DNA from: Escherichia phage AV109
Sequence record: OR352939.1
Reading direction: 5' to 3' (one strand)
Length of the DNA stretch: 64,000 nucleotides
The position numbers and the translations under genes were made by a program. The number at the start of each line of letters is the position of its first letter. Position 1 is the stretch's first letter. Below are positions 11,384 to 42,754 of this stretch, in pieces. The notes under the pieces are model-generated. The model had not been told where the DNA came from, made no database searches, and worked only from the letters and a program-made list of their open reading frames with translations.

Positions 11384-12484
11384 TTACGCTGTGAAGATTT
11401 TATCCCACATCGCAACAACTGCATCTCGATTATACTTCTTCCATACTGCTTCAGCACGTTTAACTCGAGCTTCGTATGTGTCAGTGAATTCTAATACAGC
11501 TTTTGTGTAAAGCGCAACTACTTCTTTCTTAGGAGTAGAGGAATCAATTTCTACACGCACAGTATCTGGGTCGTATTCAAATGTCGCATGAGGATAATCC
11601 TTAAAAACTAACTGGATTACAGGGACACCTTTAGAGATGGCTTCAATAGAACTATTCTCTACCGTACCTGTGTCAGGACACGTATTAATAAGTGCTTTAG
11701 CTGTTTTAAGACGTTCCATGATTTCACTATGTGGAGCATCAATAATAACAGGATACTTAGCCGGTGGTGCCCATTTACTAGGACAGTATCCTGCACCATT
11801 TTCGCCTAGTGCTTTAATCGCTTCAAGAGCAACATCAGTGCGACGCATTTTAGTGTCATAACGTTGGGCACTAATAATCAAATCAGTTGCTGGGAGAACT
11901 TCTGGCTTTTCGGTCAAACAAATAACCGGGTAGTCATCATGTTCAAATAATGGATTTTCACGCCAGTAATCATAATCAATGCTATCAGTAAGAGCTGAAG
12001 TCATATGGCAATATTTACGTTCAAATTCACGGAATGCTTTAGTAGGAGCATAGCTCTTACCACCGTATTTGTGGGTAAGAATAGTTTGTTTCCAAATTTC
12101 TACAATACCGCGAGATACAGGCTCAAATGGAGTTGCCATAAAATTTCTATGAACACTGGATAAACCGGCATCTTTAATTGCGTTAACAGTTAGTTTAGTC
12201 GGTTCCATAGTAACAACAAAATCGTATTCATGGATGCCGGCTAGTTCAACAATCTTACGAGCCATAGTATAACTCATACCTAGACTGAATTTAGTCAGAT
12301 GACCAACAGGATGATGATTAACTTTCCAGTCACCAAACGTGTCATTATCAAAGCCGATATAATCAATATCAGCACCGATGGACACAAGATATTTCAACAC
12401 ATTTAAATGTACTGCTTCAAGGCCACCTTGTACACGGTCAGGATTAAATGGGACTGCACGAGATGGGATAAACATAACTTTCAT
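11384..12484 (-). CDS. GT-B fold glycosyltransferase (GT4-like); candidate DNA hydroxymethylcytosine glycosyltransferase
   Basis: 366 aa; C-terminal nucleotide-sugar binding signature resembling GT4 E-x7-E (TGTVENSSIEAISKGVPVIQ); not present at this position in T4. Confidence 0.5.
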   Translation of the reverse strand: MKVMFIPSRAVPFNPDRVQGGLEAVHLNVLKYLVSIGADIDYIGFDNDTFGDWKVNHHPVGHLTKFSLGMSYTMARKIVELAGIHEYDFVVTMEPTKLTVNAIKDAGLSSVHRNFMATPFEPVSRGIVEIWKQTILTHKYGGKSYAPTKAFREFERKYCHMTSALTDSIDYDYWRENPLFEHDDYPVICLTEKPEVLPATDLIISAQRYDTKMRRTDVALEAIKALGENGAGYCPSKWAPPAKYPVIIDAPHSEIMERLKTAKALINTCPDTGTVENSSIEAISKGVPVIQLVFKDYPHATFEYDPDTVRVEIDSSTPKKEVVALYTKAVLEFTDTYEARVKRAEAVWKKYNRDAVVAMWDKIFTA

Positions 12485-25063: not shown

Positions 25064-25585
25064 TCAGTAACCATTATCCTGACGTTCAAAGTTGTGTTGG
25101 TTTTTCAAGTAGTAAAGTTTAAAGATTTCTTCAGCGGAAAGACCCAAACCTTGGAACATATTCAGAACAAAGTGGAGAATATCAATCATCTCGAATTTAA
25201 TTTCAAGCTGGTCTTCAGGAGACAGTTCATCGATACGACGATTACGATATTCAGCATGTTGTGCTTTCCATGGCTTCCACACAGAGCTGGCAGCTTTTTC
25301 ACCGTTGGACATACCACCGAGTGAAGTCAGCAGTTCACGGAATTCATCATCAATATAATCTTTCTGATTACGCAGCCAATCAACAACATCACCGGCAGTA
25401 GCCAATTCATCAGGATGTTTGTTATGTTCAGGCTTGTCATTTGCCAGACGAACCTGTAAAGATTTCTGCATATCAAGCATTACCTGCAGTGGGTCTTTAT
25501 CTTCGTGAATCAGAGCATTAAAATAAGCTTCTTCTGCTTTATCAACACCAGAAATAAGTTGTGAACATTCGTTAAAGTGTGCCAT
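25064..25585 (-). CDS. 56: dCTPase/dCTP pyrophosphatase gp56
   Basis: Start at ATG 25585 (MAHFNEC) with AAGGAA RBS; 173 aa, close to T4 gp56 size; position between soc and 61. Confidence 0.8.
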   Translation of the reverse strand: MAHFNECSQLISGVDKAEEAYFNALIHEDKDPLQVMLDMQKSLQVRLANDKPEHNKHPDELATAGDVVDWLRNQKDYIDDEFRELLTSLGGMSNGEKAASSVWKPWKAQHAEYRNRRIDELSPEDQLEIKFEMIDILHFVLNMFQGLGLSAEEIFKLYYLKNQHNFERQDNGY

Positions 25586-28625: not shown

Positions 28626-28874
28626 TTATTCTTTTTCGCGAATAATAATTACTTGTTGAGGCTGCTGAGCAGATTTCTTTTCGGCAACGATAGACCAAAT
28701 TAAAGTTCCAATCCAACCAATCATCGTCCAGTTAAAGAGTAAAGATACAAAGAAGATTGCTGTTGTGCTTTTTGTGCCACGAATAAGTGCGATTACCCAA
28801 GGCAACATGTAAATGATGATTGAACCAATACCTGCGATTAAAACTGCTACTGAACTAGCTACGAATAATTCCAT
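28626..28874 (-). CDS. Small membrane protein
   Basis: 82 aa with two hydrophobic helices (LIAGIGSIIIYMLPWVIALI, FVSLLFNWTMIGWIGTLIW). Confidence 0.45.
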   Translation of the reverse strand: MELFVASSVAVLIAGIGSIIIYMLPWVIALIRGTKSTTAIFFVSLLFNWTMIGWIGTLIWSIVAEKKSAQQPQQVIIIREKE

Positions 28875-31848: not shown

Positions 31849-32211
31849 TTAAAAGAATTTAAATTTTTTCTTGGTTCGTTCATTAAAAGCTTGTTGTACT
31901 TGCATTGTAACACATTTTTCAACGTGTGGTGCAAGTTCTGCTTTTCTGTCCTGGTCAAGAACTGCAAAGTCCATTACGATTTTACCATCAACCCAGTCTA
32001 GTTTTGTAATATAGACTATATGATGGGAACCGTCTTCAAGTGTAATCAGAATCTCTTGAATGACATTTTCCATTGCTGAACGGATAATTTTAAGAGATTC
32101 ATTAAACACTCGTTCTTTGCGAATGTCCTCCCCTTCCGAAGAAGGGGATTCATCAACGATTTCTAGATTTAAATCATCGAGATTATTCATCGAAATCTTC
32201 CATTTCGTCAA
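31849..32211 (-). CDS. 40: gp40-like head assembly/vertex chaperone (by synteny)
   Basis: 120 aa between uvsX and 41 as T4 gene 40. Confidence 0.45.
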   Translation of the reverse strand: MTKWKISMNNLDDLNLEIVDESPSSEGEDIRKERVFNESLKIIRSAMENVIQEILITLEDGSHHIVYITKLDWVDGKIVMDFAVLDQDRKAELAPHVEKCVTMQVQQAFNERTKKKFKFF

Positions 32212-33355
32212 GGTCGTTTTCTATATCTGCTGCAGACGGAGCATCAGAAGTTTTAACCGGAACTTTAGTTGTTGCTTTGCAATTAATAAGGTCGTTAACA
32301 GCGTCATCAACTTCTTTAATAGAAGAGATAGCACCTAGTTTATATTTAGTTTCAATTGCATCTCGGAAAGGTTTGTGTTTAAACAAAGGTCCCCAGAATT
32401 CTACACAATCAGTAGCTTTAGCACGCCATGATTTTTCTTCACGAATCATTTCACCTGTTTCTTCGTCAAGGAATTCGCGAGCATACCAACCGGCTTTAGG
32501 CTTAACTACAAAACCAATTTCAGTTGCCATTTCTAACAAGCCACTGAATGGGTCAATACCGCCATCAAAATTAACCGTGATTGGGAAAGTAGATTTTTCT
32601 TTAACGGTGCGAGATTTTTCTGCTTTCAACGTGAAGTCATAACCGGTCAATTCTGTACCTTCTTTAACCTGACGTTTAGAGATAAAGAATACAGTGTTAG
32701 CAGAATAAAGAATACCTGTACCACCACCCATAATCTCTTTAGGATACAATCCGCCGATTTCCATTGCTGTATGGTTGATTGCAACACACGGAATATCTTT
32801 AATAGTCAGATAAGGAGTCACAATACGGAAAAGAGATTTAAGTGCCTTAGCACGAGACATATCACCTACAACTTTCTCGTTCAATGCATCTTCAGTTTCT
32901 TTCTTAGATGCAGTATTACCGATTGAATCGATAAAGATAATAACTTTATCACCCCGTTCAATCGCGTCAAGCTGATTAGTCATATCAACTTTAAGTTGTT
33001 CGACGGATTGAATCGGAGTATGAACTACACGGTCTAAATCAACACCCATTGAACGAAAATAAGATTCTGAAGCACCAAATTCTGAATCATAGAACAAACA
33101 AATTGCATCTTTATATTTCTTCATATATGCTGCAACCATGGTCAGTCCAAACAACGTTTTAAAGTGTTTAGAAGGAGCAGCAAAAATAGTCAAGCCTGAT
33201 TGCAATCCTGCATTCAGAGCACCACCTAGTGCAATATTCAACATTGGAATACGAGTAGGGACTTCATCACGATTATTAAACAGCTTAGACTTAGTCAAGT
33301 CTGCAGTCATTTTAGAAGTAGAAGCTTTAATCAGACGAGATTTTAAATCAGACAT
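32183..33355 (-). CDS. uvsX: UvsX recombinase (RecA-like)
   Basis: 390 aa; RecA-fold P-loop region (IFAAPSKHFKT) and T4 UvsX N-terminus MSDLKSRLIKASTSKMTA. Confidence 0.9.
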   Translation of the reverse strand: MSDLKSRLIKASTSKMTADLTKSKLFNNRDEVPTRIPMLNIALGGALNAGLQSGLTIFAAPSKHFKTLFGLTMVAAYMKKYKDAICLFYDSEFGASESYFRSMGVDLDRVVHTPIQSVEQLKVDMTNQLDAIERGDKVIIFIDSIGNTASKKETEDALNEKVVGDMSRAKALKSLFRIVTPYLTIKDIPCVAINHTAMEIGGLYPKEIMGGGTGILYSANTVFFISKRQVKEGTELTGYDFTLKAEKSRTVKEKSTFPITVNFDGGIDPFSGLLEMATEIGFVVKPKAGWYAREFLDEETGEMIREEKSWRAKATDCVEFWGPLFKHKPFRDAIETKYKLGAISSIKEVDDAVNDLINCKATTKVPVKTSDAPSAADIENDLDEMEDFDE

Positions 33356-33453: not shown

Positions 33454-34002
33454 TTAACGAGCCCATTTGATAATTTCTGTAATCAAATAATTACGTTCGC
33501 TTGCATTAAATCCTATAACTTTGTTAGCACCATCATGATTAAGTAATTGATACGTTTGGATTTTGTTATGAATTGCAAACTCTTCAAAATGTGAAATGAC
33601 TGTATTAAAACCGAATGAAGACAAAGTAATAAGGTCGTCTTCAAAACTTTCAGTCATTTCGTTACGTGTTAAAATAATTGTGAACACATCATGGTTTTGG
33701 CAAAGACGAACATAATCCTGTTCATAAACGTCAAGAACCGAGTCCGCATCTTGTCGAATACGTCCATAAACCCAGTTACTAATATATCCACGGTCTAACA
33801 GATAAATCTTAGTAGGGTCTAAATAATTCAACATCGTTTCGAAACAGCCAACTTCATTTCGAGACTTAACATCGAAACGTCCATCAACTGTTCGTTTAGG
33901 GAAATCAATTTTTACATATCTTTCACTAATTTCCATTATGTCATTAATGAAAGTTGTTTTACCAGCATTATCCGGTCCATCTACTAAAATAATTTTAGCC
34001 AT
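33454..34002 (-). CDS. P-loop kinase, thymidylate/dNMP-kinase-like
   Basis: 182 aa; Walker A GPDNAGKTT and DRG motif (LLDRGYISNWVYG) as in TMPK-family kinases; sits where T4 has segA/bgt. Confidence 0.5.
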   Translation of the reverse strand: MAKIILVDGPDNAGKTTFINDIMEISERYVKIDFPKRTVDGRFDVKSRNEVGCFETMLNYLDPTKIYLLDRGYISNWVYGRIRQDADSVLDVYEQDYVRLCQNHDVFTIILTRNEMTESFEDDLITLSSFGFNTVISHFEEFAIHNKIQTYQLLNHDGANKVIGFNASERNYLITEIIKWAR

Positions 34003-34003
34003 T

Positions 34004-34903
34004 TTATTCCTCGATTACGACATCTTCATATTTAGGTATATTATATGGTGAAGAAATTAAAGCATTAAAGTAGATGAACTCACCAAGACCTGGATGAAAT
34101 ACTTCTTCAGGATTTTCGAAATATTGAATCTTCGGACGTCCTTTAAGAATTTGATAGTACTCAGTTTTAGTTGGTTTAAAAATTCGAATCAACGCTTCTT
34201 CAGGATACTTATTTCTGTCAAAGCTATTATTTGGATCGGTTATATAAAGCGGTTGACCTAATTGAATTGCGCATTCAACAACTTGTTCAAAACGATAGCA
34301 TGGGTCACTAATTCGAAATGGATGAAAAATACCATCTAGATGAATAGGAGCCAAATCACCTACAAGACGCTGCATGATGGAAGGACGTATAACTTTCTGC
34401 GTTACGATAATCTTATTACCATCTGCACCTGCGTTAACCAGCACTTCTTTTTGACGTTCATTCAACACAGTTGTTTGGATTGAACGATTAACCGACAATA
34501 TGTCGGTTTTTAAGAATTCGTCAATATAAAAACGTGGTTTATTAGGGTCTGCGGTGATATTGAAATTGAATTCTACATCAAAAGCGCCGTCATATCCAGT
34601 GATATCTGTGATTAGAAAATCACAATCATAATAAGCAATTAATGAATCAACCACAAATTCATTTTCAGACCAGAAATATTTACGAGTGTTATACGCGTTA
34701 TCTTTATACCATAATGGAACAAACTTAAATTCTGGAAAAAGACGTTCGCATTCTTTAATATCAGATGCATTACGTGGATATGTAATCACATCACCCGGAT
34801 TAGCACGGTGCAAATGAAGTTGGAAGTTGCCATCCTTAAGGATAGCATACTGTCCAGTTTCATAAGACCGCATACTCAAGATAGGTACGCGGAAAATAGC
34901 CAT
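34004..34903 (-). CDS. Hypothetical protein in the bgt slot (candidate transferase)
   Basis: 299-aa ORF tightly packed between the P-loop kinase and the gene 42 homologue; no motif recognised. Confidence 0.45.
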   Translation of the reverse strand: MAIFRVPILSMRSYETGQYAILKDGNFQLHLHRANPGDVITYPRNASDIKECERLFPEFKFVPLWYKDNAYNTRKYFWSENEFVVDSLIAYYDCDFLITDITGYDGAFDVEFNFNITADPNKPRFYIDEFLKTDILSVNRSIQTTVLNERQKEVLVNAGADGNKIIVTQKVIRPSIMQRLVGDLAPIHLDGIFHPFRISDPCYRFEQVVECAIQLGQPLYITDPNNSFDRNKYPEEALIRIFKPTKTEYYQILKGRPKIQYFENPEEVFHPGLGEFIYFNALISSPYNIPKYEDVVIEE

Positions 34904-35619
34904 TAGTCAAGGAATCCTTTAACATAATCAAAATCACGTTCAAACACATGGGCACTTACCATGGTATGAGTATAATCACCAACTTCTACACCACATTCGT
35001 TAGCGATATAATGAAGTAATTTTCCTTGGAGATAAAAATCCAACTGCATAACAACAGCACAGTTCTGGGAACGCATATGACAGTGGGTATAAAGCTTACC
35101 GTCACGAATATAATAGGTCACTGAGTCAGTACATGGATATTCAAGCGTTTCGTCTGAATCAAGCAAAGCCTGATCAGAACTTTCTAGAATTTGGAACACA
35201 ACTCTTCGGGAGTTAGGCTTCTCTTTAAGTTCTTTTAGAAGAGCTGGTAATTGAGCCGCAATGCGAGGACCATAGAAAGTGTTGAAGTTCGCCGGCAAAA
35301 CATCTGATTTTGGTTTAGAAATAAATTTAGCGACATTAGGATATGCCTTAAACGCTTCTTCTGCGTTGGTACCACCAGAAATCATAAACTTCCAGAAGTC
35401 TTCGGCATATTCATAAGAGATGCGGTTAATACGTGGGTCGGTCATTTTGAATGATGATGGAGTGTCAACAACTACTGTCATAGACCCAATTTCATTACAA
35501 CGTCCAATACGAGAATCAGTTACGAATTCCGGGTTTTCTAAAATTTCACGATTGACTGCTTTAAATGCGGCTTGAAAATCTGCGGCTTTGATATATTTCA
35601 TTGTGTTATGTTTTCCCAT
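34903..35619 (-). CDS. 42: dCMP hydroxymethylase-like (thymidylate synthase family)
   Basis: 238 aa; TS-family active-site region (YPCTDSVTYYIRDGKLY, HMRSQN); position before gene 43 as T4 gene 42. Confidence 0.65.
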   Translation of the reverse strand: MGKHNTMKYIKAADFQAAFKAVNREILENPEFVTDSRIGRCNEIGSMTVVVDTPSSFKMTDPRINRISYEYAEDFWKFMISGGTNAEEAFKAYPNVAKFISKPKSDVLPANFNTFYGPRIAAQLPALLKELKEKPNSRRVVFQILESSDQALLDSDETLEYPCTDSVTYYIRDGKLYTHCHMRSQNCAVVMQLDFYLQGKLLHYIANECGVEVGDYTHTMVSAHVFERDFDYVKGFLD

Positions 35620-35661
35620 GTTTACCTCAATACAATTTATTATATACTCAATTTGTAAAGC

Positions 35662-35901
35662 TTATTTGAATTTCTTGGCAATGTTGATATAACGTAAAGC
35701 TTCAGTATCAATACTTCCAAGAACACTATGAAGAAATGCATCAGCGTAGTATTCCAATTGAACAGGTTCTTTAATCACTTTAGCCGCTTTGGTTTCAAAC
35801 AGGCCCATCAGGGCCTTTTTAAGAATTTGTTCGTTAGTGTTCAGTTTAATAGTCAAAATCTCTTCGTTAAGTTTATAATTAAAAGTTTTTCTAGAAATCA
35901 T
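35662..35901 (-). CDS. Hypothetical protein
   Basis: 79-aa ORF. Confidence 0.4.
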   Translation of the reverse strand: MISRKTFNYKLNEEILTIKLNTNEQILKKALMGLFETKAAKVIKEPVQLEYYADAFLHSVLGSIDTEALRYINIAKKFK

Positions 35902-37067
35902 TCCGGGTACCTCAAAGCGTCATCAGAGTTAGTTATATCAATAATAGATATAGAGTTTTCTGCTAACCCGTTTTTAGATAATTGACGTTTATAATATCTT
36001 TCACAATATGTACACGTCGTCCCGCAGATTTCATTAGCACAATCGAAATCTGGATGTCTGAACCACCTTTTTTCTAAAAAGCCATCTAACAAAGAGGTTT
36101 CAATATTTACTGTATGTGAAAACTCAGTTTCGTTTTCAAGAGTGAAAATGGTCTCTAAAGGCTTCCACAGTTCTAACAAATTACCTTCAAACTTTTCAGA
36201 AGCGTATGCTTCAAGAACTTTCAAAATGTAGTCTGTGCTACCTGTACGTCCTGAAACTTTGAATTGAGTGATACCAATATCATTATAAAGTTTCAAATCT
36301 TGAGGACGAACAAAACGAGTTCTCAACCAGTTAAATGGGTCTGTATCACGAGCTTTAATACAGTGCTGCATAGGATATCCGTTTAAGGATTTAGCATCAT
36401 CAGCTGTAACATCAGTACTATGGAAAATATAGCAAGAGTCACGATAGCTACAATGTGTTGTATACCCTTTACCAGCATTAGAACAGAACTCATTTACAAG
36501 AACTTCAAATATTATATTGTTCTTATTGCAAAACTCTGCTGCACGCTTCAGGAAAGAAACTGAACGGTTCTTATGAATTCCGCAGCAGACCTTTTTGATA
36601 TTATACTGGTCATGCAAGTATTTGATTTGAGTTACAGCATCGACATGTAGAATTGTTGAAACTTCAATCTCAATGTCTTTATTGACTTCACGAACAATTT
36701 CCATAACAACAGGGTTAGCGATAGTAATACGCCATACGCCTATTGACCAAAGATACTGAACATAATCCTGAATAGCTTTCTTCTTCCACTCAACTAGTTC
36801 TCTTTTTGAACCAGGATTTATCGTGTTGAGTGTATAGTTAAAGCAAATACCTAATTCGTTACAACGTTTAACGTAGTCTTCTAACATCTTTTTGTCAACG
36901 TCAGGAAGCCTAAAATCAGGTCTGGCTGCTACAAAAGCCATTTCTCTTGTAGAGCCATATACTTCGTTTATCAAGCTATTAGGATAGGTTTTATTGAGCT
37001 CTACGATTTTATCAAGAAGAGCTAAATCAAAATTCGTTCCGATTTTAAAAGTATTCATTTTTTGCAT
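35898..37067 (-). CDS. U32-peptidase-family-like protein with Cys clusters (putative Fe-S enzyme)
   Basis: 389 aa; blocks resembling the U32 family (ICFNYTLNTINP, EVLVNEFCSNAGKGYTTHCSY, FKVSGRTGS) plus C-terminal CANEICGTTCTYC; assignment from motif recall only. Confidence 0.35.
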   Translation of the reverse strand: MQKMNTFKIGTNFDLALLDKIVELNKTYPNSLINEVYGSTREMAFVAARPDFRLPDVDKKMLEDYVKRCNELGICFNYTLNTINPGSKRELVEWKKKAIQDYVQYLWSIGVWRITIANPVVMEIVREVNKDIEIEVSTILHVDAVTQIKYLHDQYNIKKVCCGIHKNRSVSFLKRAAEFCNKNNIIFEVLVNEFCSNAGKGYTTHCSYRDSCYIFHSTDVTADDAKSLNGYPMQHCIKARDTDPFNWLRTRFVRPQDLKLYNDIGITQFKVSGRTGSTDYILKVLEAYASEKFEGNLLELWKPLETIFTLENETEFSHTVNIETSLLDGFLEKRWFRHPDFDCANEICGTTCTYCERYYKRQLSKNGLAENSISIIDITNSDDALRYPE

Positions 37068-37113
37068 CTCGCGTTAATTGATGCGATGGTTTTTGCAGGT
37101 CTTACTTAAATTA

Positions 37114-37515
37114 TTATAGATTCGGTTTATACGATTTAAATGTTTCGAATTCGCCTTTATTCATAAGAGCTTTGAATTCGTCAGGACGCATAGCTTTGTC
37201 GTCGATAATCCAATCATATACTGGTTTATGTGTTAGCAAATTATGGTACTTCAAGCCAATGTTTGCCAAGTTCTGAATCAGACTTGGGAGAATGTCAATT
37301 GCTATACGACCAGGACCTACTGACTTCATACCGCGAGCAGTGTAAAGCGTTATGGTATGCCCTGCATCATACAGGGCATTAATGGCAGACACCATTTCGA
37401 CGTCTGGTTTGAAGTTCACGTAATCACGATTGTTATTCCACTCTGTTATACAATCATCGACATCAAAACAAAGATTAAGCATGTTTTCTACACGGTGCAT
37501 TAGATTCGTTCCCAT
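37114..37515 (-). CDS. HAD-superfamily phosphatase (KdsC-like small sugar-phosphate phosphatase)
   Basis: 133 aa; DxD motif I (CFDVDDCIT) near N-terminus. Confidence 0.5.
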   Translation of the reverse strand: MGTNLMHRVENMLNLCFDVDDCITEWNNNRDYVNFKPDVEMVSAINALYDAGHTITLYTARGMKSVGPGRIAIDILPSLIQNLANIGLKYHNLLTHKPVYDWIIDDKAMRPDEFKALMNKGEFETFKSYKPNL

Positions 37516-39185
37516 TGATGAGTGATATCGCCACCGATTGGACGATAGGAAACACCAGTTTCTTTATCAGTTAGTACCCATTTACCAGGATTTTTTGTAA
37601 TCAGAGTAGCCGTTACAGGTTCTGCTACGTCATAACTAATAGAGCCGTCCTGAAGTACACGGCCCATGTTACGTAATTGCTTAGTCAGAAGTTCCATACC
37701 TTTATAATATGCGGCTACCGCTTTAAGTGGATTATTCTTGAAATAACCACCTAATGCAATCCAGATAATTGCCACAGCCAAATGATGATATTCATTAAAC
37801 GAACTCAGCTTTCCATATTTGTAAACTAATGGATTGATGTTAATAGTCACATTACAAGTTGTTTCATCAATAGTAAACTGTCCCCAGGTCGGATTAGCAT
37901 TGAATTCATCATAACCTGAAACAGCATAAAGCACTTTAGCTTCATCATACAATTTTGGCCCGTAAATCTTGGTTTCACCAAAATATCCACGAGGGTCGAT
38001 AAATTTGACTTCGCCGTTATCAGTAATCATAGTATTACTGAAGTTCGGGTCACCATGAATAACAGAGTACTGTCCCTGAGAACGGTTATGATAACGAATA
38101 AGGTGTTCTAAAGCTTGTTTCAGCATTGGCTTCAGACGTCCAATCTTAGTGTAGTTCACATGTGTGATTTTACCAAATGAATCAATCAACGGTTGAATGC
38201 TTTCACAACGATCAATAACTTTCGTATAGAATTCTTTAGTGAAATCACGACGAACAGTTTCAGGACTTACAAAATAAGTGTCTGTGCTGAATTTCAGTGC
38301 ATCTAAAATTGCATCAACAATTTGTGGACGAGCAAGACTTGATTTGGATTTAATATATTCAAATGCCGGCTTACCTTTAATGCGTTCCATTTCAAAGTTA
38401 TTTTCATTAACAGAAACTAACTGAGGAACTGAATCTGATTTCACTTTAAGATACCATGAAATCTCATCTTTCTGAAGAGCTCGACCTTGTTCAGTTAATG
38501 CGAATTTAGTTACAGTTTCTTCACCAATTTCAACTGCATTAAAACTACGATTAAGTTCACGAACTTCATGAGCCTTTTCAAGTTTAGGCATATCACCAAG
38601 GTCGATGATATTCATAAGCTCTGATTTATTGAATGCGCCGCTGTAAAGGAATTCTACGAAATCACGTCCTTTGCAGTATTCATGAATTTCCTCATCGGTA
38701 GAACCCATGTAGAATTCCCAGTCTTTGAACTGGTAAATTCCCACAACATTACCACCTGTTGAACCTACGTTAGTGATATTTTCACCATCGAAATTATATC
38801 GACATTCGTCACCCTTAACATAGATTGCGTTAACATTCCAAGACCATGAACCAAAATCAGGAATAATATCACACCAGTTAACAATTACGTTATGGCCGTC
38901 TAAATCTTTGTGTAATTTAGCAAGAGCATAAGCAGAACCATACGCTTCATCGACTGTACGAATAGTCACATTGAACCCTTCTTGCTCACAATAAGCTCGA
39001 ACAGTTTCAGCAAATTTTGAATGAACTACTACAATAATTTCATCTGCGCCAAGGTCAGAATAAATTGTATACAAATTGCTCAGAATAGTGTCTTGTTTAT
39101 AGTTAACAAGCACCTTAGGAATATGGTGAGTAATTGGATATAAACGAGTTGCCAATCCAGCACCAAGAATAACAGCTTTTTTCAT
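37500..39185 (-). CDS. Bifunctional sugar-1-phosphate nucleotidyltransferase / sugar kinase (APH/choline-kinase-like C-terminal domain)
   Basis: 561 aa; N-terminal NTP-transferase signature (KAVILGAGLATRLYPITHHIPKVLV); C-terminal phosphotransferase motifs (HGDPNFSNTMI, KFIDPRGYFG). Confidence 0.6.
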   Translation of the reverse strand: MKKAVILGAGLATRLYPITHHIPKVLVNYKQDTILSNLYTIYSDLGADEIIVVVHSKFAETVRAYCEQEGFNVTIRTVDEAYGSAYALAKLHKDLDGHNVIVNWCDIIPDFGSWSWNVNAIYVKGDECRYNFDGENITNVGSTGGNVVGIYQFKDWEFYMGSTDEEIHEYCKGRDFVEFLYSGAFNKSELMNIIDLGDMPKLEKAHEVRELNRSFNAVEIGEETVTKFALTEQGRALQKDEISWYLKVKSDSVPQLVSVNENNFEMERIKGKPAFEYIKSKSSLARPQIVDAILDALKFSTDTYFVSPETVRRDFTKEFYTKVIDRCESIQPLIDSFGKITHVNYTKIGRLKPMLKQALEHLIRYHNRSQGQYSVIHGDPNFSNTMITDNGEVKFIDPRGYFGETKIYGPKLYDEAKVLYAVSGYDEFNANPTWGQFTIDETTCNVTININPLVYKYGKLSSFNEYHHLAVAIIWIALGGYFKNNPLKAVAAYYKGMELLTKQLRNMGRVLQDGSISYDVAEPVTATLITKNPGKWVLTDKETGVSYRPIGGDITHQWERI

Positions 39186-39212
39186 GTTGTGGTCCTCATT
39201 GGTAAGTAGGAG

Positions 39213-39240
39213 TATTGTACACTATTCTAGTTAAAGCATT
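39213..39240 (-). promoter_or_regulatory. Candidate MotA-dependent middle promoter (MotA box AATGCTTTA + TACAAT -10) upstream of the nucleotidyltransferase-kinase gene
   Basis: Minus strand reads AATGCTTTAA-N12/13-TACAAT, then GAGG RBS and ATG at 39185. Confidence 0.4.
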
Positions 39241-39370
39241 CATACTTTGCTTGTAGTCCAATCATAATCCATCCAATTACAAGTGTTGGAATCATTACCG
39301 GAGCCGTTAAGCTCCAGTAGATAGTCATGACAAGCATCAATAGTAAAAGTCCTATTGTTATTGCTTTCAT
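39227..39370 (-). CDS. Small membrane protein (about 47 aa)
   Basis: ATG 39370 overlapping stop of SIS gene (ATGA), GAGG RBS; translation MKAITIGLLLLMLVMTIYWSLTAPVMIPTLVIGWIMIGLQAKYECFN; T4 has membrane protein Imm in this interval. Confidence 0.3.
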   Translation of the reverse strand: MKAITIGLLLLMLVMTIYWSLTAPVMIPTLVIGWIMIGLQAKYECFN

Positions 39371-40002
39371 TGTTCGCCTCGTAACATGGCACCTAGTGCA
39401 CCGCCTGGATGGAACTTAAGGAAATCATTAGAGGTAAATCCACGTTCAGACGAAAGGTTGATAGCAAACGTATCGATAAGCGCTAACAACAATGTAGTGG
39501 ACATTGTCGGAGCTAAAGAGTTCTCGTCAACTTCTACCGCGATACCAGTACAGAACGTATAATCAAAAAGAGCTTCGTATTCTTGTGGAATGTCAGGGTT
39601 ACAATGTAACAGAATCTGTTTAACCTGAGGACGAATCATACGAAGATGTTTAGCAACACCTATCATTTCTTCAGTCTTACCAGAACGACTAATATGAATC
39701 AACACGTCATTAGGTGCAATAAATCCTGCGTCACCATGAGAATAATGCCCAGTGTTCAAATACATGCTAGGAATACCTAGTGAAGCAAATGTCTCGGAAG
39801 CTTTAGTTGCGATATTAGCATTCTTACCAACACCTGTAATAATTACCCGGCTTTCATAATTACTAAGTCCAGGGCGTCGAAGAGTTTCTAGAATAGCATT
39901 ATAACGAGCAGGGTTTTGACTAATTACTTTGGCCATAGCGGCCAAAGAAGAAGCTTGTTTTATGATTGCGTCAATAGCGATAGTAATAGGAGTAGTTTTC
40001 AT
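39367..40002 (-). CDS. SIS-domain sugar-phosphate isomerase, KpsF/GutQ-type (arabinose-5-phosphate isomerase-like), no CBS domains
   Basis: 211 aa; ITGVGKNANIATKASETFASLGIPSMYL, HGDAGFIAPNDVLIHISRSGKTEEM, LAPTMSTTLLLALID, FHPGGALG match the KpsF/GutQ SIS-domain pattern. Confidence 0.6.
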   Translation of the reverse strand: MKTTPITIAIDAIIKQASSLAAMAKVISQNPARYNAILETLRRPGLSNYESRVIITGVGKNANIATKASETFASLGIPSMYLNTGHYSHGDAGFIAPNDVLIHISRSGKTEEMIGVAKHLRMIRPQVKQILLHCNPDIPQEYEALFDYTFCTGIAVEVDENSLAPTMSTTLLLALIDTFAINLSSERGFTSNDFLKFHPGGALGAMLRGEQ

Positions 40003-40042
40003 ATTTCTCTCATTTAATTAGTTTACCGTCCATGGCATTATA

Positions 40043-42754
40043 TCAAAAATCGAACATATCGAACAGAGATGCTTTCTTCTCGTAATCGAGTTTCGCTGCT
40101 GATGTGAATCCTTCAAGTGGTTTAATAAATGTCTTCTCAAGGAGAACAGTGTAGTCCATCCAATGAAGTACGTCGTCTTTAATTAAATCTGTGATTTCAG
40201 TACCAGAAGGCCATGCGATACATTTATCACCGAATGGGTTTCCTTCACGTAAAGGCAGAACATATACTTTTTCACCTTCTACAACTTGTGGTGCATCAAT
40301 ATTACCTTTGATAGCTCGGTTATATGTCAGAATTCCACGAATATGAAACGGGCATTTAGGACCAGGGAATCCACCGACATCATATTTAGCAATGTTATTC
40401 GCAGAAGATACCGACGCGATGCTAATATAATTCAATTGACGGAATTCTTTTTCAAACTCTTTAAAATATTCTTGTAATGATTCTTCACCTTCTTGAAGCA
40501 TACGACGAATACATTCTTTAAGAGCTTTCTGTACTGCTTTAGGAGTCGAAGATTTCTGAGTCTCTAGACCCATGATTTTGAGTTTAGGCTCAGCATAACG
40601 AGTGCCTTCCATATCCCACACGTTTAATGCATAACGTTTCTTACCAGTCCAGAATCCACCAATACCTTTAGAACCGAGCGGAGGGCCAGCAATAGCTTCT
40701 CGGTCCATGAACATTAAGTGTTGTTTATTGTTCATGTATTCACACATTTCACGGAAACCTCTATCAATAGCTGGTTCCATACGTTCACGTGCAAACTTAT
40801 CTAAGAAGTCTACCCAATGGTTTGTATCACGGAATTTAGATTCACCAACCTTATCGATAATTTTATCAGCAGATACGTAAATAGAGTCTGTATCACCATA
40901 AAGAACGAAAGCTTCACCTTCTGTACCACAAACTTCATTCAGATATTCATTAACTTTACGTTCAATCCACTGTAAAGCCATTTGACCAAATGTTGTGATT
41001 GCAGTTGCATTACGCAAATCATAATAACGGAACCAAACGTTTCCAAGTGCACCATAAAGTGAGTTGATAAGCAATTTACGGTTAATTTGGGCAGTCATAC
41101 CCGCAACTTCAGTACGTTGAGCTCTAAACAACATTTCATTAAGAGATTTAGCAGACAACTTTTTAATCTTTTCTTTAATCTCATCGCTGAAGTCGAAACG
41201 ATAATCAACATCTAATGGTTCGTCAACAGAAAGATTAGGATTATGCAATGCCTCTTTAATTATTTCACCATTACGTTGAGCTGCAAGCATGTAACCTTTA
41301 TGTTCTTTACGTTGATTAAAGACCTTAGTGATTTCAGTTGGAACTACACCATCACGGTCTTTATAATACATCATGCCGTTAGGAGAACAACTGTACACAT
41401 CTGAAGGACGTTCAGCGATTGCGTTAATATAATCATGTAATGGAGCTACTTTAAACGTTCCTGCTATTGTTTCTGGGCTAATATTCACTTGGCGAATGAT
41501 GCTTGGATACAGAGATGTAAGGTCGAAACTCATTACATATTTGTATCGATTTGGAATAGGTTCCTTAACAAAAGCGCCAGGATAAGGTTGAACCGGGTGA
41601 GAACGACCTTGTGGAATCACCTTGTTCTGCTCTTTAAGGCTATTAAAAATAATAGCATCCCAAGTTTTAATTGGACTGAACACAGATTGAATCTGAATTT
41701 TAGCATAATAACCCATGTCCAAGCTCAAGTTGATGAACTGACGCTTAGAATCAATTTGCAATACACGATACACGTCGATAATGTTATAAGAAATATATCG
41801 TTGGTGATTGCTTTCACGAAGCTTAGAAATAGGGCCGTCATATTTCAGTTTACCAACGTTCAATTCAAATTCTGAAATGTAATCCAGAGAATACGACGGT
41901 TGATTGGTAAAAGAGAATTTTTTGTAAAGGTCAATGTAATCAAGAACAGAGATACCGAACAATGTAATGATTTCACGAGAACCATACATGTTTTCGATAA
42001 CTTTAACACGAGTTTTACGATGTGGCGATAAACGTTTCGCAGTAGATTCGCCAAAAATATTCTTGATTCGGTTATACACATATGGAATATCAAATGACTC
42101 AACGTTCCATCCAGTCAAAATGACAGGAGTTTTCTGTTGCCAGAAGTTGAGATATTCCATCAACAATTCTTTTTCGTTATCGAACGGCATATAAATGATT
42201 TTATCGATAATTTCAGATGGAACTTCATCACCGCCTTGTTCTTGAAGCTTAGCAGCGATTTCAATAGACCATTCTTCTACATTACCATACGGAGAATTCA
42301 ATAGATCAAATACGTAGAACCTGTCGTCAATTGAGTCATAATGGGTGATAGCATCAATAGGATGCTTTGCTTGTGCCGGCTCAGGGAACCCGTCCGGAGA
42401 TGTTACTTCGATGTCGAAGTTAGCCACACGAATTTTTGTATGGTCGTATTTGATTTCATAGTTATAAGTGTCAGACAAATACGCCAATTTGAAATCGTCC
42501 ATGCCAAGTGCTTCAAGTCCGATATCTTCCATGCGTTTAATCCATTGGGAGGCATCACGCATATTAGCGAACAACTTACGAGTACACGGCTTACCGTAGA
42601 TATCGAAATATTTCGTAGCCTGACTTTCCGGACAATGAGCAAACAGTGATGGTTTATATTCTACTTCACGAGTACGTTCACGGCCATTAGAATCGATGTA
42701 ACGTTCAAAAATTGAATCACCAATCTGTTCAACCGTTAAGTAAAATTCTTTCAT
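40043..42754 (-). CDS. 43: DNA polymerase gp43 (family B)
   Basis: 903 aa; exonuclease and polymerase motifs including YGDTDS; size as T4 gp43. Confidence 0.95.
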   Translation of the reverse strand: MKEFYLTVEQIGDSIFERYIDSNGRERTREVEYKPSLFAHCPESQATKYFDIYGKPCTRKLFANMRDASQWIKRMEDIGLEALGMDDFKLAYLSDTYNYEIKYDHTKIRVANFDIEVTSPDGFPEPAQAKHPIDAITHYDSIDDRFYVFDLLNSPYGNVEEWSIEIAAKLQEQGGDEVPSEIIDKIIYMPFDNEKELLMEYLNFWQQKTPVILTGWNVESFDIPYVYNRIKNIFGESTAKRLSPHRKTRVKVIENMYGSREIITLFGISVLDYIDLYKKFSFTNQPSYSLDYISEFELNVGKLKYDGPISKLRESNHQRYISYNIIDVYRVLQIDSKRQFINLSLDMGYYAKIQIQSVFSPIKTWDAIIFNSLKEQNKVIPQGRSHPVQPYPGAFVKEPIPNRYKYVMSFDLTSLYPSIIRQVNISPETIAGTFKVAPLHDYINAIAERPSDVYSCSPNGMMYYKDRDGVVPTEITKVFNQRKEHKGYMLAAQRNGEIIKEALHNPNLSVDEPLDVDYRFDFSDEIKEKIKKLSAKSLNEMLFRAQRTEVAGMTAQINRKLLINSLYGALGNVWFRYYDLRNATAITTFGQMALQWIERKVNEYLNEVCGTEGEAFVLYGDTDSIYVSADKIIDKVGESKFRDTNHWVDFLDKFARERMEPAIDRGFREMCEYMNNKQHLMFMDREAIAGPPLGSKGIGGFWTGKKRYALNVWDMEGTRYAEPKLKIMGLETQKSSTPKAVQKALKECIRRMLQEGEESLQEYFKEFEKEFRQLNYISIASVSSANNIAKYDVGGFPGPKCPFHIRGILTYNRAIKGNIDAPQVVEGEKVYVLPLREGNPFGDKCIAWPSGTEITDLIKDDVLHWMDYTVLLEKTFIKPLEGFTSAAKLDYEKKASLFDMFDF

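Follow-up and report, generated by a model that had tools for sequence, protein, structure and literature searches.

The 6.5 kb between uvsX and gene 43 of Escherichia phage AV109, positions 33454-40002 of the 64,000-nucleotide stretch of record OR352939.1 that we have analysed (the window), very probably form the ara-5hoC (arabinosyl-5-hydroxycytosine) hypermodification cluster of RB69-like Mosigvirus. The cluster as such is not new, RB69 arabinosylation and its gene module having been described in 2018 and worked out in 2025-2026 (Thomas; Mahler; He; Lee). For one of its products, a U32-family Fe-S protein, comparative genomics leads us to propose a function: we give it an even chance of being a putative O2-independent, prephenate-dependent pyrimidine C5 hydroxylase. 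If this proposal is true, the cluster holds two hydroxylases, one O2-dependent and of TS type, the other O2-independent and of U32 type.

The interval contains nine minus-strand genes, flanked by uvsX (32183-33355) and gene 43 (40043-42754). Its proteins are 91-100% identical to RB69 gp45-gp55, a range that also takes in ORF003c and gp56, and about 99% identical to those of phage HY126, while the DNA is 99.3% identical to that of phages AV114 and AV115. Since the entire 6.5 kb recurs at at least 95% identity in about 154 phage records, the pattern is not due to chance. Genes and gene order are those of the RB69/HY126 Afh cluster, with essentially no difference except that 46/47 and 52/53 are split in the RB69 record and intact in AV109, as published corrections predict; the 98-99% identity to characterised phages suggests that AV109 DNA carries the same modification. 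An earlier note, made from the sequence alone, had listed seven of these proteins, and the ORF list and profile searches place them at the same positions, on the minus strand and in the families it had named. It was also right about the content of the T4 interval (T4 order uvsX-segA-bgt-42-imm-imm.1-43), and its view that a DNA-hypermodification cluster occupies the position of T4 bgt agrees with what has been published for the RB69 module. The note saw no recognisable alpha- or beta-glucosyltransferase; indeed, T4 beta-gt gave no tblastn match in the window, which holds no sequence homologue of a-gt or b-gt. It overlooked a 79-aa ORF, a 47-aa ORF, the GT-B gene at 11384-12484 and the dCTPase gene at 25064-25585.

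The modified base derives from dCMP, which is supplied by the gp56 dCTPase as it removes dCTP, is converted to 5-hydroxy-dCMP by a flavin- and O2-dependent TS-fold enzyme and is then phosphorylated to the diphosphate by a phage dNMP kinase, as published for near-identical proteins (PMC13326640); the diphosphate would proceed to the triphosphate and be incorporated by the polymerase. The gp56-type dCTPase of AV109, included in Table 1 of Lee 2026, is encoded outside the cluster (25064-25585, minus strand; 97.1% identical to RB69 gp56). The cluster itself encodes a TMPK-like P-loop nucleotide kinase of 182 residues (33454-34002, minus strand; 98.9% identical to RB69 gp45), which matches PHROG 761 'thymidylate kinase' at 2e-45 and, weakly, the P-loop of TIGR00041, and is termed 'nucleotide kinase' in Table 1 of Lee 2026 (PMC13326640). 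The TS-fold enzyme has 238 residues (34903-35619, minus strand; 98.7% identical to RB69 gp48; Pfam Thymidylat_synt 2e-15) and is matched by the solved HY126 structures PDB 9iqc, 9ir2 and 9iqu (E 8e-161). The earlier note had taken it for a dCMP hydroxymethylase homologue, but it carries E143, C146, N169 and D177, the residues published as diagnostic of 5-hydroxy-dCMP synthases, and is thus assigned to the synthases. A gene-42-type hydroxymethylase would accord with the TS fold, catalytic Cys146 and dCMP-selecting Asp177 that the protein shares with T4 gp42, and the arabinosyl-hydroxymethylcytosine which it implies for the phage DNA was proposed in the original RB69 paper (Thomas 2018 PMC6024577). 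Yet T4 gp42 has D169 and only 24.8% identity to the AV109 protein; NMR and MS of RB69 DNA place the ether link straight on C5 of 5-hydroxycytosine, while gp48 binds flavin and makes 5-hydroxy-dC with 18O from O2 (Lee 2026 PMC13326640); and PMC13390438, which also gives 5-hydroxycytosine as the acceptor base, terms the 2018 assignment erroneous. Already refuted for RB69, this reading is very improbable for AV109. Consequently, of the arabinosylated hydroxymethylcytosine suggested by the earlier note, the sugar stands, arabinose rather than glucose, and the base has to be replaced by 5-hydroxycytosine (Lee 2026 PMC13326640; PMC13390438).

The sugar branch would begin with the conversion of ribulose-5-P to arabinose-5-P by the SIS-domain isomerase, a step proposed in the literature from structure comparison. 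In AV109 this enzyme is a KpsF/GutQ-type protein of 211 residues (39367-40002, minus strand; 98.1% identical to RB69 gp55), which matches TIGR00393 KpsF/GutQ (5e-32), KdsD (2e-30) and Pfam SIS (5e-10) and lacks CBS domains. The following activities reside in a bifunctional enzyme of 561 residues (37500-39185, minus strand), homologous to HY126 AfhE and RB69 ORF53_52c, and in a HAD-type phosphatase of 133 residues (37114-37515, minus strand), homologous to HY126 AfhF and RB69 gp51. The former shows 98-99% identity to both of the halves annotated in RB69, which Thomas 2018 (PMC6024577) corrected to one 561-aa ORF; it combines a sugar-1-P uridylyltransferase at about residues 1-215 (Pfam NTP_transferase at 3-99) with a C-terminal APH/choline-kinase-like domain (weak kinase-like matches at 308-409) that corresponds to the Ara5P 1-kinase. 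The latter matches TIGR01689, a HAD-type capsule phosphatase family, at 4e-13 and the solved HY126 structure PDB 9iqw at E 8e-88; its role as arabinose-1,5-bisphosphate 5-phosphatase is that which Lee 2026 (PMC13326640) reports from He 2026. According to the same relayed account, in HY126 the kinase domain converts Ara5P to Ara-1,5-P2, the HAD 5-phosphatase yields Ara-1-P and the N-terminal domain of AfhE produces UDP-Araf. The NDP-arabinose route from ribulose-5-P through the SIS isomerase, as deduced in the earlier note, therefore matches the published UDP-arabinofuranose route, but its order of phosphatase and then kinase has to be reversed, the kinase preceding the phosphatase in HY126 with no dephosphorylation and re-phosphorylation, as far as Lee 2026 (PMC13326640) relays it.

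Two GT-B enzymes would then transfer arabinose to the DNA. The protein of 299 residues that had been left as an unknown (34004-34903, minus strand) has no match in Pfam and NCBIfam searches; it has a GT-B fold and is the intact form of the RB69 gp46:47 arabinosyltransferase, which a sequencing error splits in the RB69 record. This base-proximal arabinosyltransferase 1 (GT1) is proposed to place the first alpha-Araf onto the 5-hydroxyl. The second Araf, beta-1,3-linked, would be added by arabinosyltransferase 2, a protein of 366 residues encoded outside the interval (11384-12484, minus strand), which is 95.6% identical to RB69 ORF003c and is matched at E 1e-241 by PDB 9iqz/9ir0, 'phage HY126 glycosyltransferase'; this role has been proposed for ORF003c by Thomas 2018 (PMC6024577) and Lee 2026 (PMC13326640).

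The system shares with the glucosyl-hmC system of T4 both genomic position and logic, namely dCTPase, TS-fold C5 modification of dCMP, kinase and post-replicative GT-B glycosylation, whereas the chemistry differs: folate-dependent hydroxymethylation (D169) and host UDP-glucose in T4, flavin/O2 hydroxylation (N169) and UDP-Araf made through four phage-encoded activities in AV109. In the clusters of Acinetobacter phage DLP3/Lazarusvirus (tri-arabinosyl-5hoC) and of the E. coli Dhakavirus, SIS, AfhE-like, HAD, TS (E/C/N/D), GT1 and TMPK-like genes follow the same order as in AV109, but U32 and chorismate mutase are both absent, so that the gene next to HAD is the TS gene or, in JS10, the kinase gene. 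The Acinetobacter phages carry further GT-B genes, which serve to add a third arabinose. Rhizobium phage RL38J1, with galactosyl/glucosyl-5-hydroxycytosine, likewise has an N169-type TS hydroxylase, a nucleotide kinase and GT-B transferases, but uses hexoses instead of arabinose and has no U32 reported (PMC13326640); its UDP-galactopyranose mutase has a counterpart in the metagenomic locus L006.

The U32 protein of AV109 (35898-37067, minus strand; 389 residues) is 99.5% identical to RB69 gp50 and matches Pfam Peptidase_U32 PF01136 at 7e-11, over the gathering score. No other cluster protein is conserved as strongly: its identity is 79-89% across the genera that carry it, compared with 65-79% for their DNA polymerase. 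Its AF2 model has a pLDDT of 92.9 and PDB 5d88 as best match. Among the E. coli paralogues, hhalign finds RlhA closest (E 8e-6), followed by TrhP (2e-3) and UbiU (7e-3), the support being modest, 84% for RlhA and low for TrhP and UbiU. Identity to RlhA, TrhP, UbiU and UbiV is about 18-20%, yet the phage protein has in common with them the U32 domain, invariant R49, E188, G273 and Y280, and Fe-S motif cysteines, C206, C212 and C236 aligning with the canonical ones; the fourth canonical cysteine is replaced, as in UbiU. It differs from them in an extra invariant C-terminal CX4CX3CX2C motif, in the absence of their RNA-binding and extension domains and in its presumed substrate, a deoxynucleotide rather than RNA or quinone. 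Among 121 U32 homologues nine cysteines are invariant and C180 is conserved in 98%. RlhA is needed for 5-hydroxycytidine 2501 in 23S rRNA and TrhP for 5-hydroxyuridine 34 in tRNA (PMC5727448, PMC6599085), while UbiU/UbiV serve anaerobic ubiquinone hydroxylation; U32 members have been associated with hydroxylation that proceeds without O2 and proposed to be Fe-S hydroxylases with prephenate as oxygen donor, although neither RlhA nor TrhP has been directly shown to hydroxylate, nor as yet have U32 members in vitro (PMC10990095).

The small ORFs and the U32 protein are the members for which the earlier note's remark on genes without an assigned role still holds. What could the U32 protein do in a cluster where, aerobically, the TS homologue by itself is enough for 5hoC formation (Lee 2026 PMC13326640)? 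We propose that it would offer an additional way of hydroxylating the pyrimidine, one that does not depend on O2 and in which prephenate would donate the oxygen, as has been suggested for RlhA, TrhP and UbiU/V. Mononucleotides are its probable substrates, and the TMPK-like kinase was probably the partner it had ancestrally. O2-dependent and putative O2-independent enzymes would thus coexist as in the pairs TrhO/TrhP and UbiIHF/UbiUV. The gene context points in this direction. In eight of nine sister genera a chorismate mutase gene (Pfam CM_2, over gathering score) directly follows U32; in Thanatos the two have moved together, and all 51 phage-database matches of this chorismate mutase fall in the ara-5hoC cluster. 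Unrelated viral contigs have U32 flanked by DAHP-synthase/chorismate-mutase fusions or by stand-alone chorismate mutase; the fusions are of Bacteroidota type, which is no proof of anaerobic hosts. The AV109 window has no chorismate mutase, the sister-genera enzyme having been lost here, and prephenate would therefore be host-derived. Within the 10 kb inspected to either side of U32 in metagenomic loci, no hydroxylase-type TS accompanies the kinase-GT1-U32 operons of any of the 25 non-Straboviridae lineages, and none of 22 divergent loci with hydroxylase-type TS, most of them ordered TS-GT1-kinase, has U32; this either/or pattern leaves zero contigs shared by the two sets, while the kinase homologue accompanies GT1 in both. 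Acinetobacter phages, whose host is a strict aerobe, have neither U32 nor chorismate mutase, but U32 is also missing from the E. coli Dhakaviruses, and the correlation with host oxygen is therefore only partial.

A different possibility, which we regard as rather unlikely, is that U32 belongs to the sugar branch or is a redox helper, for example by reducing flavin for the TS-type hydroxylase or by modifying the arabinose donor. Its only label in Table 1 of Lee 2026 (PMC13326640) is 'sugar or heterocycle reductase', electron transfer suits Fe-S clusters, and U32 is often accompanied by AfhE-like genes (11 of the 25 metagenomic lineages) and SIS genes (8 of the 25). However, DLP3, AM101 (Acinetobacter) and the Dhakaviruses make or encode arabinosylation without U32, and since the same arabinosyl-5hoC is made by Acinetobacter phages, the sugar chemistry can do without U32. 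Moreover, nine metagenomic loci (L002, L004, L006, L036, L040, L041, L046, L048 and L062) combine U32 with kinase and GT1 or dCMP deaminase without any sugar-activation gene, the flavin enzyme to be served is absent within 10 kb in those 25 lineages, and the association with chorismate mutase is left unexplained.

Less probable still is RNA hydroxylation by U32, together with chorismate mutase in the sister genera, to give ho5C in rRNA or ho5U34 in the tRNA of phage or host, the location of U32 in the cluster being incidental. This would parallel the requirement for RlhA and TrhP in RNA 5-hydroxylation (PMC5727448, PMC6599085), their direct activity being undemonstrated (PMC10990095). T4-like phages do encode tRNAs. 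Synthesis of cmo5U in tRNA also needs prephenate, so that U32 and chorismate mutase could serve RNA modification. Against this, unrelated phages repeatedly show U32 tightly linked to a dNMP-type kinase and to GT1, the DNA glycosyltransferase, and U32 stands in an either/or relation with the dCMP hydroxylase; phage U32 proteins, of about 360-389 residues, are also without the long extensions that TrhP (453 residues) and RlhA (653 residues) have at the C-terminus. To the collagenase-like peptidase of the database name we give almost no credence: 'peptidase' is the annotation in many phage records and PHROG 5757, and in the PDB the 'U32 peptidase' Mk0906 matches best, but a protease would fit neither the nucleotide-metabolism context nor the nine cysteines that are invariant, and the literature ties U32 to O2-independent hydroxylation by proposed Fe-S hydroxylases (PMC10990095).

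In AV109 the chorismate-mutase slot of the sister genera is occupied by the 79-aa ORF (35662-35901, minus strand), which overlaps the U32 gene by 4 nt and, as the homologue of RB69 gp49, is the least conserved protein with respect to RB69 (91%). It has no Pfam match and is homologous to the second small ORF of the slot in TG1 and PM2; it shows no similarity to phage chorismate mutases and is not such an enzyme. The 47-aa ORF (39227-39370, minus strand) encodes a conserved protein with a single transmembrane segment, homologous to RB69 ORF054c, whose annotation covers only the last 36 residues; homologues of 46-48 residues lie at the same position in X20, PM2, TG1, PEi26, Virsaitis27 and HY126.

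The interval at 33454-40002 on the minus strand is an arabinosyl-5-hydroxycytosine hypermodification cluster of the RB69/HY126 type, a real feature that as a whole is already known. Flanked by uvsX (32183-33355) and by gene 43 for the DNA polymerase (40043-42754), it holds open reading frames of 182, 299, 238, 79, 389, 133, 561 and 211 aa, all on the minus strand, which in profile searches fall in the families that the earlier note had named from the raw sequence. The 182-aa protein (33454-34002, TMPK-like) has a weak dTMP-kinase P-loop match, the 238-aa protein (34903-35619) belongs to Pfam Thymidylat_synt, the 389-aa protein (35898-37067) to Peptidase_U32 and the 133-aa protein (37114-37515) to the HAD capsule-phosphatase subfamily TIGR01689 (4e-13), while the 561-aa protein (37500-39185, AfhE-like) combines NTP_transferase with weak kinase-like matches and the 211-aa protein (39367-40002) is a SIS protein (KpsF/GutQ, 5e-32); PHROGs agree with these assignments. 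Over its 6.5 kb the cluster shares 99.3% identity with Escherichia phages AV114 and AV115; phage records with at least 95% identity number about 154, and every one is an RB69-like Mosigvirus. All genes from gp45 to gp55 of RB69 are present in the window with 91-100% protein identity, and counterparts of RB69 ORF003c (11384-12484, 95.6% identical) and of the gp56 dCTPase (25064-25585, 97.1%) lie elsewhere in it. The 299-aa and 561-aa frames are the unbroken forms of RB69 46/47 and 52/53; the breaks in the old RB69 record have been explained as errors of sequencing (PMC13326640, PMC6024577). The composition profile gave no GC anomaly over the cluster, and scanning the interval for promoters and terminators returned no more sites than shuffles did.

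The acceptor base was taken in the earlier note to be hydroxymethylcytosine, made by a gene 42 homologue acting as dCMP hydroxymethylase; neither idea holds. In an alignment with E. coli ThyA numbering, the thymidylate synthase (TS) homologue of 238 aa carries E143, C146, N169 and D177, that is L143E, N177D and the diagnostic D169N together with the catalytic Cys146, as against D/C/D/D in T4 gp42 and L/C/D/N in ThyA. It is 98.7% identical to RB69 gp48 and only 24.8% to T4 gp42, and matches PDB entries 9iqc, 9ir2 and 9iqu (E 8e-161). By NMR and MS, Lee et al. 2026 established the RB69 base as 5-hydroxycytosine bearing ether-linked beta-D-Araf-(1-3)-alpha-D-Araf, found that gp48 turns dCMP into 5-hydroxy-dCMP with O2, as 18O2 labelling showed, and a flavin, and named D169N as the diagnostic residue (PMC13326640); the previous hydroxymethyl assignment has been called erroneous (PMC13390438). 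The corresponding T4 interval, uvsX-segA-bgt-42-imm-imm.1-43, was correctly chosen for comparison, and a T4-type glucosyl-hmC system can be rejected on two grounds: N169 replaces D169 and, as had been claimed, T4 beta-gt has no tblastn match anywhere in the window. The GT-B enzymes of the window are all arabinosyltransferase homologues. In the known part of the route, gp56 converts dCTP to dCMP, the TS-fold enzyme hydroxylates dCMP to 5-hydroxy-dCMP with flavin and O2, and a phage dNMP kinase raises this to the diphosphate; the triphosphate step and the incorporation of the 5-hydroxy-dC nucleotide into DNA are its proposed continuation.

The predicted gene set for UDP-arabinofuranose is complete, with an A5P isomerase, a bifunctional Ara5P 1-kinase/uridylyltransferase and a HAD 5-phosphatase, all 98-99% identical to RB69 proteins; the phosphatase also matches PDB 9iqw (E 8e-88). 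The SIS protein is proposed to form Ara5P from ribulose-5-P, after which the C-terminal domain of the 561-aa protein would yield Ara-1,5-P2, the HAD protein Ara-1-P and the N-terminal domain of the 561-aa protein UDP-Araf. According to He et al. 2026, as relayed in PMC13326640, AfhE of HY126 (the 561-aa type) converts Ara5P to Ara-1,5-P2 and later gives UDP-Araf, while AfhF (the HAD protein) strips the 5-phosphate, an order opposite to the phosphatase-before-kinase sequence suggested before. Two predicted GT-B DNA arabinosyltransferases, one inside the cluster (GT1, the 299-aa protein, 34004-34903) and one near rIIA/gene 39 (GT2, 11384-12484, minus strand), correct the supposed absence of a transferase; GT2 matches PDB 9iqz and 9ir0, labelled phage HY126 glycosyltransferase (E 1e-241), and the proposal is that GT1 acts first and GT2 second. 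Hence the idea of an arabinose-type decoration, drawn from phage-made NDP-arabinose in place of glucosylation, survives. Four specifics need correction: which base is modified, what the gene 42 homologue is, whether a transferase is present, and in what order kinase and phosphatase act. The note's reasoning from the bare sequence holds up for the most part, even if the pathway was re-discovered and is not new. Thomas et al. 2018 found arabinose on RB69 DNA, singled out the same eight-gene module from gene 43 to uvsX, and proposed ORF003c as a transferase and ORF055c and ORF53_52c as UDP-arabinose enzymes (PMC6024577); the pathway has since been published, crystal structures included. Since AV109 is nearly identical to RB69, HY126 and phage NP, in which the modification has been measured, we infer that mono- and di-arabinosyl-5-hydroxy-dC replace dC in its virion DNA.

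What, then, does the 389-aa U32 protein do, the most conserved of the cluster and without a role in the published scheme? Its RB69 homologue, gp50, occupies one table row in Lee 2026 as 'sugar or heterocycle reductase', with no accompanying text (PMC13326640), and the Thanatos paper, which models TH1_057-065, is silent on it. A full-text literature search, with He 2026 and Mahler 2025 lying outside its coverage and potentially assigning the protein, returned no paper that joins U32, prephenate or chorismate mutase (CM) to phage DNA modification. Across ten other phages the protein is 79-89% identical to the window version, more than every other cluster protein; the TS hydroxylase reaches 71-82%, gp41 64-74% and, in the genera carrying U32, the DNA polymerase 65-79%. 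Nine cysteines (C161, C195, C206, C212, C236, C343, C348, C352 and C355) are invariant in 121 homologues, in which C180 is 98% conserved. The first three canonical U32 cluster cysteines of UbiU, TrhP and RlhA align with C206, C212 and C236, while the fourth position is Arg, likewise in UbiU; C161, C195 or C180 could provide the substitute for the predicted Fe-S ligand. The predicted model (pLDDT 92.9) has the U32 protein 5d88 as its closest PDB match, followed in Foldseek by generic TIM barrels only, so that there is no characterised hydroxylase structure for comparison; a PDB sequence search gave zero matches for this protein and for the 561-aa protein. It matches Pfam PF01136 at 42.2 bits against a gathering cut-off of 22.4, and in hhalign the phage family comes nearest to RlhA, although the matches are modest (E 8e-6 over 206 columns, with TrhP at 2e-3 and UbiU at 7e-3).

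The gene has a recurrent companion. In eight of the nine other phages examined (Virsaitis27, X20, PEi26, CIP9, PM2, TG1, phiP4-3 and Thanatos-2) a Pfam CM_2 chorismate mutase, scoring 32.8-44.6 bits, above the gathering score, comes next after U32, overlapping it by 4 nt in most of them and standing second where a gp49-type frame is also present. The pair has been relocated jointly within the Thanatos cluster, and this CM occurs in 51 records of the phage database, always inside this cluster. The window cluster lacks it, like those of RB69, HY126 and Marfa, and tblastn with seven phage CMs detected none elsewhere in the window. U32 and CM are missing together from Acinetobacter phage AM101 and E. 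coli Dhakavirus JS10, which keep all other cluster genes, including the N169-type TS; as DLP3, an Acinetobacter phage related to AM101, makes the same arabinosyl-5-hydroxycytosine (PMC13326640), U32 is dispensable for the sugar chemistry. It appears in 221 phage records, the hosts listed being all Enterobacterales or Shewanella, and the AfhE-like gene in 376, of which 57 are from Acinetobacter, a genus absent among the hosts listed for U32. The correlation with host oxygen is partial, for U32 is missing from Acinetobacter phages but also from E. coli Dhakaviruses.

Beyond named phages, more than 100 metagenomic proteins in viral contexts share 46-58% identity with the U32 protein of the window. 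One viral contig combines GT1-like, SIS, AfhE-like, U32 and DAHP synthase genes, and another TMPK-like, GT1-like, U32, TAGT-like transferase, dUTPase and UDP-galactopyranose mutase genes; large phage contigs have the order thymidylate-kinase-like, UDG, PolIII-alpha, dCMP deaminase and then U32. Scanning IMG/VR with the U32 alignment produced 47 loci, to which five others (L002-L006) were added, and reading frames within 10 kb on each side were scanned with HMMs. Among 25 lineages outside Straboviridae, these flanks contain GT1-like genes in 18, TMPK-like in 17, AfhE-like in 11, SIS in eight, DAHP synthase in five and CM in four; a TS gene lies there in a single lineage (L035), where canonical ThyA residues mark it as an ordinary thymidylate synthase and not a hydroxylase. 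DAHP_synth_1 plus CM_2 fusions, or stand-alone CM_2 proteins, adjoin U32. Such fusions unite the entry reaction of aromatic biosynthesis with one at a branch point, and their closest named homologues are bifunctional DAHP synthase/chorismate mutases of Bacteroidota, both aerobic and anaerobic, which is compatible with either lifestyle of the hosts. Fusions of this type stand beside U32 at L047:7290-8354, L044:8399-9430, L049:8323-9384 and L058:11082-12200, and phage-borne auxiliary genes of the shikimate pathway are apparently not discussed in the literature searched.

The reciprocal scan, in which aligned N169-type TS proteins served as the query, recovered 50 loci, 47 with the E/C/N/D signature. 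None shares a contig with the non-Straboviridae U32 set, and TS and U32 come together only in 16 RB69-like or Marfa-like loci. All 22 divergent TS loci are without U32 and most are ordered TS-GT1-kinase, while seven U32 lineages present the mirror order kinase-GT1-U32 with no TS gene within 10 kb on either side. The same transferase and kinase pair thus accompanies either a TS-type enzyme or U32, as one would expect if two non-homologous enzymes supplied the same intermediate.

The relatives of U32 suggest a possible chemistry. RlhA, TrhP and UbiU/UbiV are Fe-S proteins needed for O2-independent hydroxylations, whose products are 5-hydroxycytidine in rRNA, 5-hydroxyuridine in tRNA and ubiquinone (PMC10990095, PMC5727448, PMC6599085); prephenate is the oxygen donor shown for UbiU/V and proposed for the whole family (PMC10990095). 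We therefore examined gp50 as a second cytosine hydroxylase. That it is an O2-independent, prephenate-dependent enzyme giving 5-hydroxy-dCMP seems to us an evenly balanced proposition, drawn from comparative genomics: the pyrimidine would be oxidised via one or more Fe-S clusters, hydroxide would derive from the decarboxylation of prephenate, and the ancestral partner of the enzyme would be the TMPK-like kinase. With no CM found in the window, prephenate would have to come from host chorismate mutases. The competing explanations fare less well. A redox or sugar-branch helper would suit the reductase label in the RB69 table and the nucleotide-sugar genes around U32; set beside the phages that dispense with it, and beside the U32 lineages with the mirror gene order, we consider it rather improbable. 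An RNA hydroxylase would fit the hydroxylations in rRNA and tRNA for which RlhA and TrhP are needed; given the recurrent company of DNA-modification genes, such a target appears distinctly unlikely. A peptidase would agree with the name of the Pfam family; next to the cysteines aligned with those of hydroxylation proteins, we give it hardly any credence.

The preferred hydroxylase reading can be extended to a broader one, which we advance tentatively and rate somewhat short of an even chance. Many enteric T4-like phages, AV109 included, would have two non-homologous routes to 5-hydroxycytosine, a TS-fold route using O2 and a U32 route using prephenate, with a phage CM in most sister genera. 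In kinase-glycosyltransferase-U32 modules outside Straboviridae, hydroxylation would fall to U32 alone, and in unrelated, probably Bacteroidota-infecting phages prephenate would come from the DAHP-synthase/chorismate-mutase fusion. Some variation in product may exist: huge-phage contigs of up to 466 kb (L002:9447-11939, L004:8279-10601) encode a DnaE-type PolIII alpha, dCMP deaminase precedes U32 in them, and there are hints of 5-hydroxyuracil rather than 5-hydroxycytosine. After U32 these two contigs also share a conserved frame of 248-254 aa with no Pfam match.

The published hydroxylase needs O2, though host gut bacteria often grow without it; a prephenate-dependent U32 hydroxylase would explain hypermodification under anoxia. 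It would be the first of its family to act on DNA precursors, extending a poorly understood chemistry beyond RNA and quinones, and the broader reading would imply a widespread, undescribed oxygen-free making of glycosylated DNA pyrimidines. The question also matters for phage therapy, since how sensitive a phage is to restriction, CRISPR and type IV systems depends on the modification of its DNA. As of 2024 there was no in vitro assay for U32 hydroxylase chemistry (PMC10990095), for which this small, soluble and highly conserved phage enzyme could then serve as a model, and the combination of U32, GT1 and TMPK-like kinase could mark glycosylated-pyrimidine phages in metagenomes lacking the TS-type signature. 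What the analysis adds is a specific, testable hypothesis for one strongly conserved gene outside the published pathway.

Several small frames deserve mention. The 79-aa frame between the TS and U32 genes (35662-35901, minus strand) was considered as a diverged AroQ (type II) CM and rejected: it has no Pfam match (E up to 1), a BLASTP E of 16 against the Virsaitis27 CM, 13-25% identity and none of the conserved Arg/Lys/Glu motif of phage CMs, and its homologue is a second small frame alongside CM in TG1 and PM2. It is the least conserved of the cluster (91% to RB69 vs 98-100% for its neighbours), has counterparts at L011:8197-8394, L010:8155-8328 and L070:5661-5783, and in the HY126 record carries two 1-nt indels, which cut the annotated frame to 40 aa. 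Between the SIS and AfhE-like genes, a 47-aa frame with a single transmembrane segment (MKAITIGLLLLMLVMTIYWSLTAPVMIPTLVIGWIMIGLQAKYECFN; 39227-39370, minus strand) overlaps the SIS gene by 4 nt, has identically placed homologues of 46-48 aa in six other phages, and is annotated in RB69 for its last 36 aa only; it is a membrane peptide within a cytoplasmic nucleotide-sugar cluster. A 50-aa GTG frame (39240-39392, minus strand) is an alternative reading over it and the SIS 3' end and probably no gene. Sister genera have a lipoprotein-like frame, a signal peptide then Cys, between gene 43 and SIS (L012:3088-3507, L010:3493-4020, L013:2983-3492, L014:3041-3493, L009:3556-4083), where the window has a 40-nt gap (40003-40042), and Winklervirus and Kanagawavirus phages insert a Seg-like homing endonuclease gene between HAD and U32 (L012:6352-6990, L007:5352-5990, L013:6352-6990) that the window lacks. 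Finally, a homologue of the superinfection immunity gene imm (28629-28874, minus strand), with 65% identity to T4 Imm, is located some 5 kb past uvsX in the direction away from the cluster, whereas T4 imm sits between genes 42 and 43.
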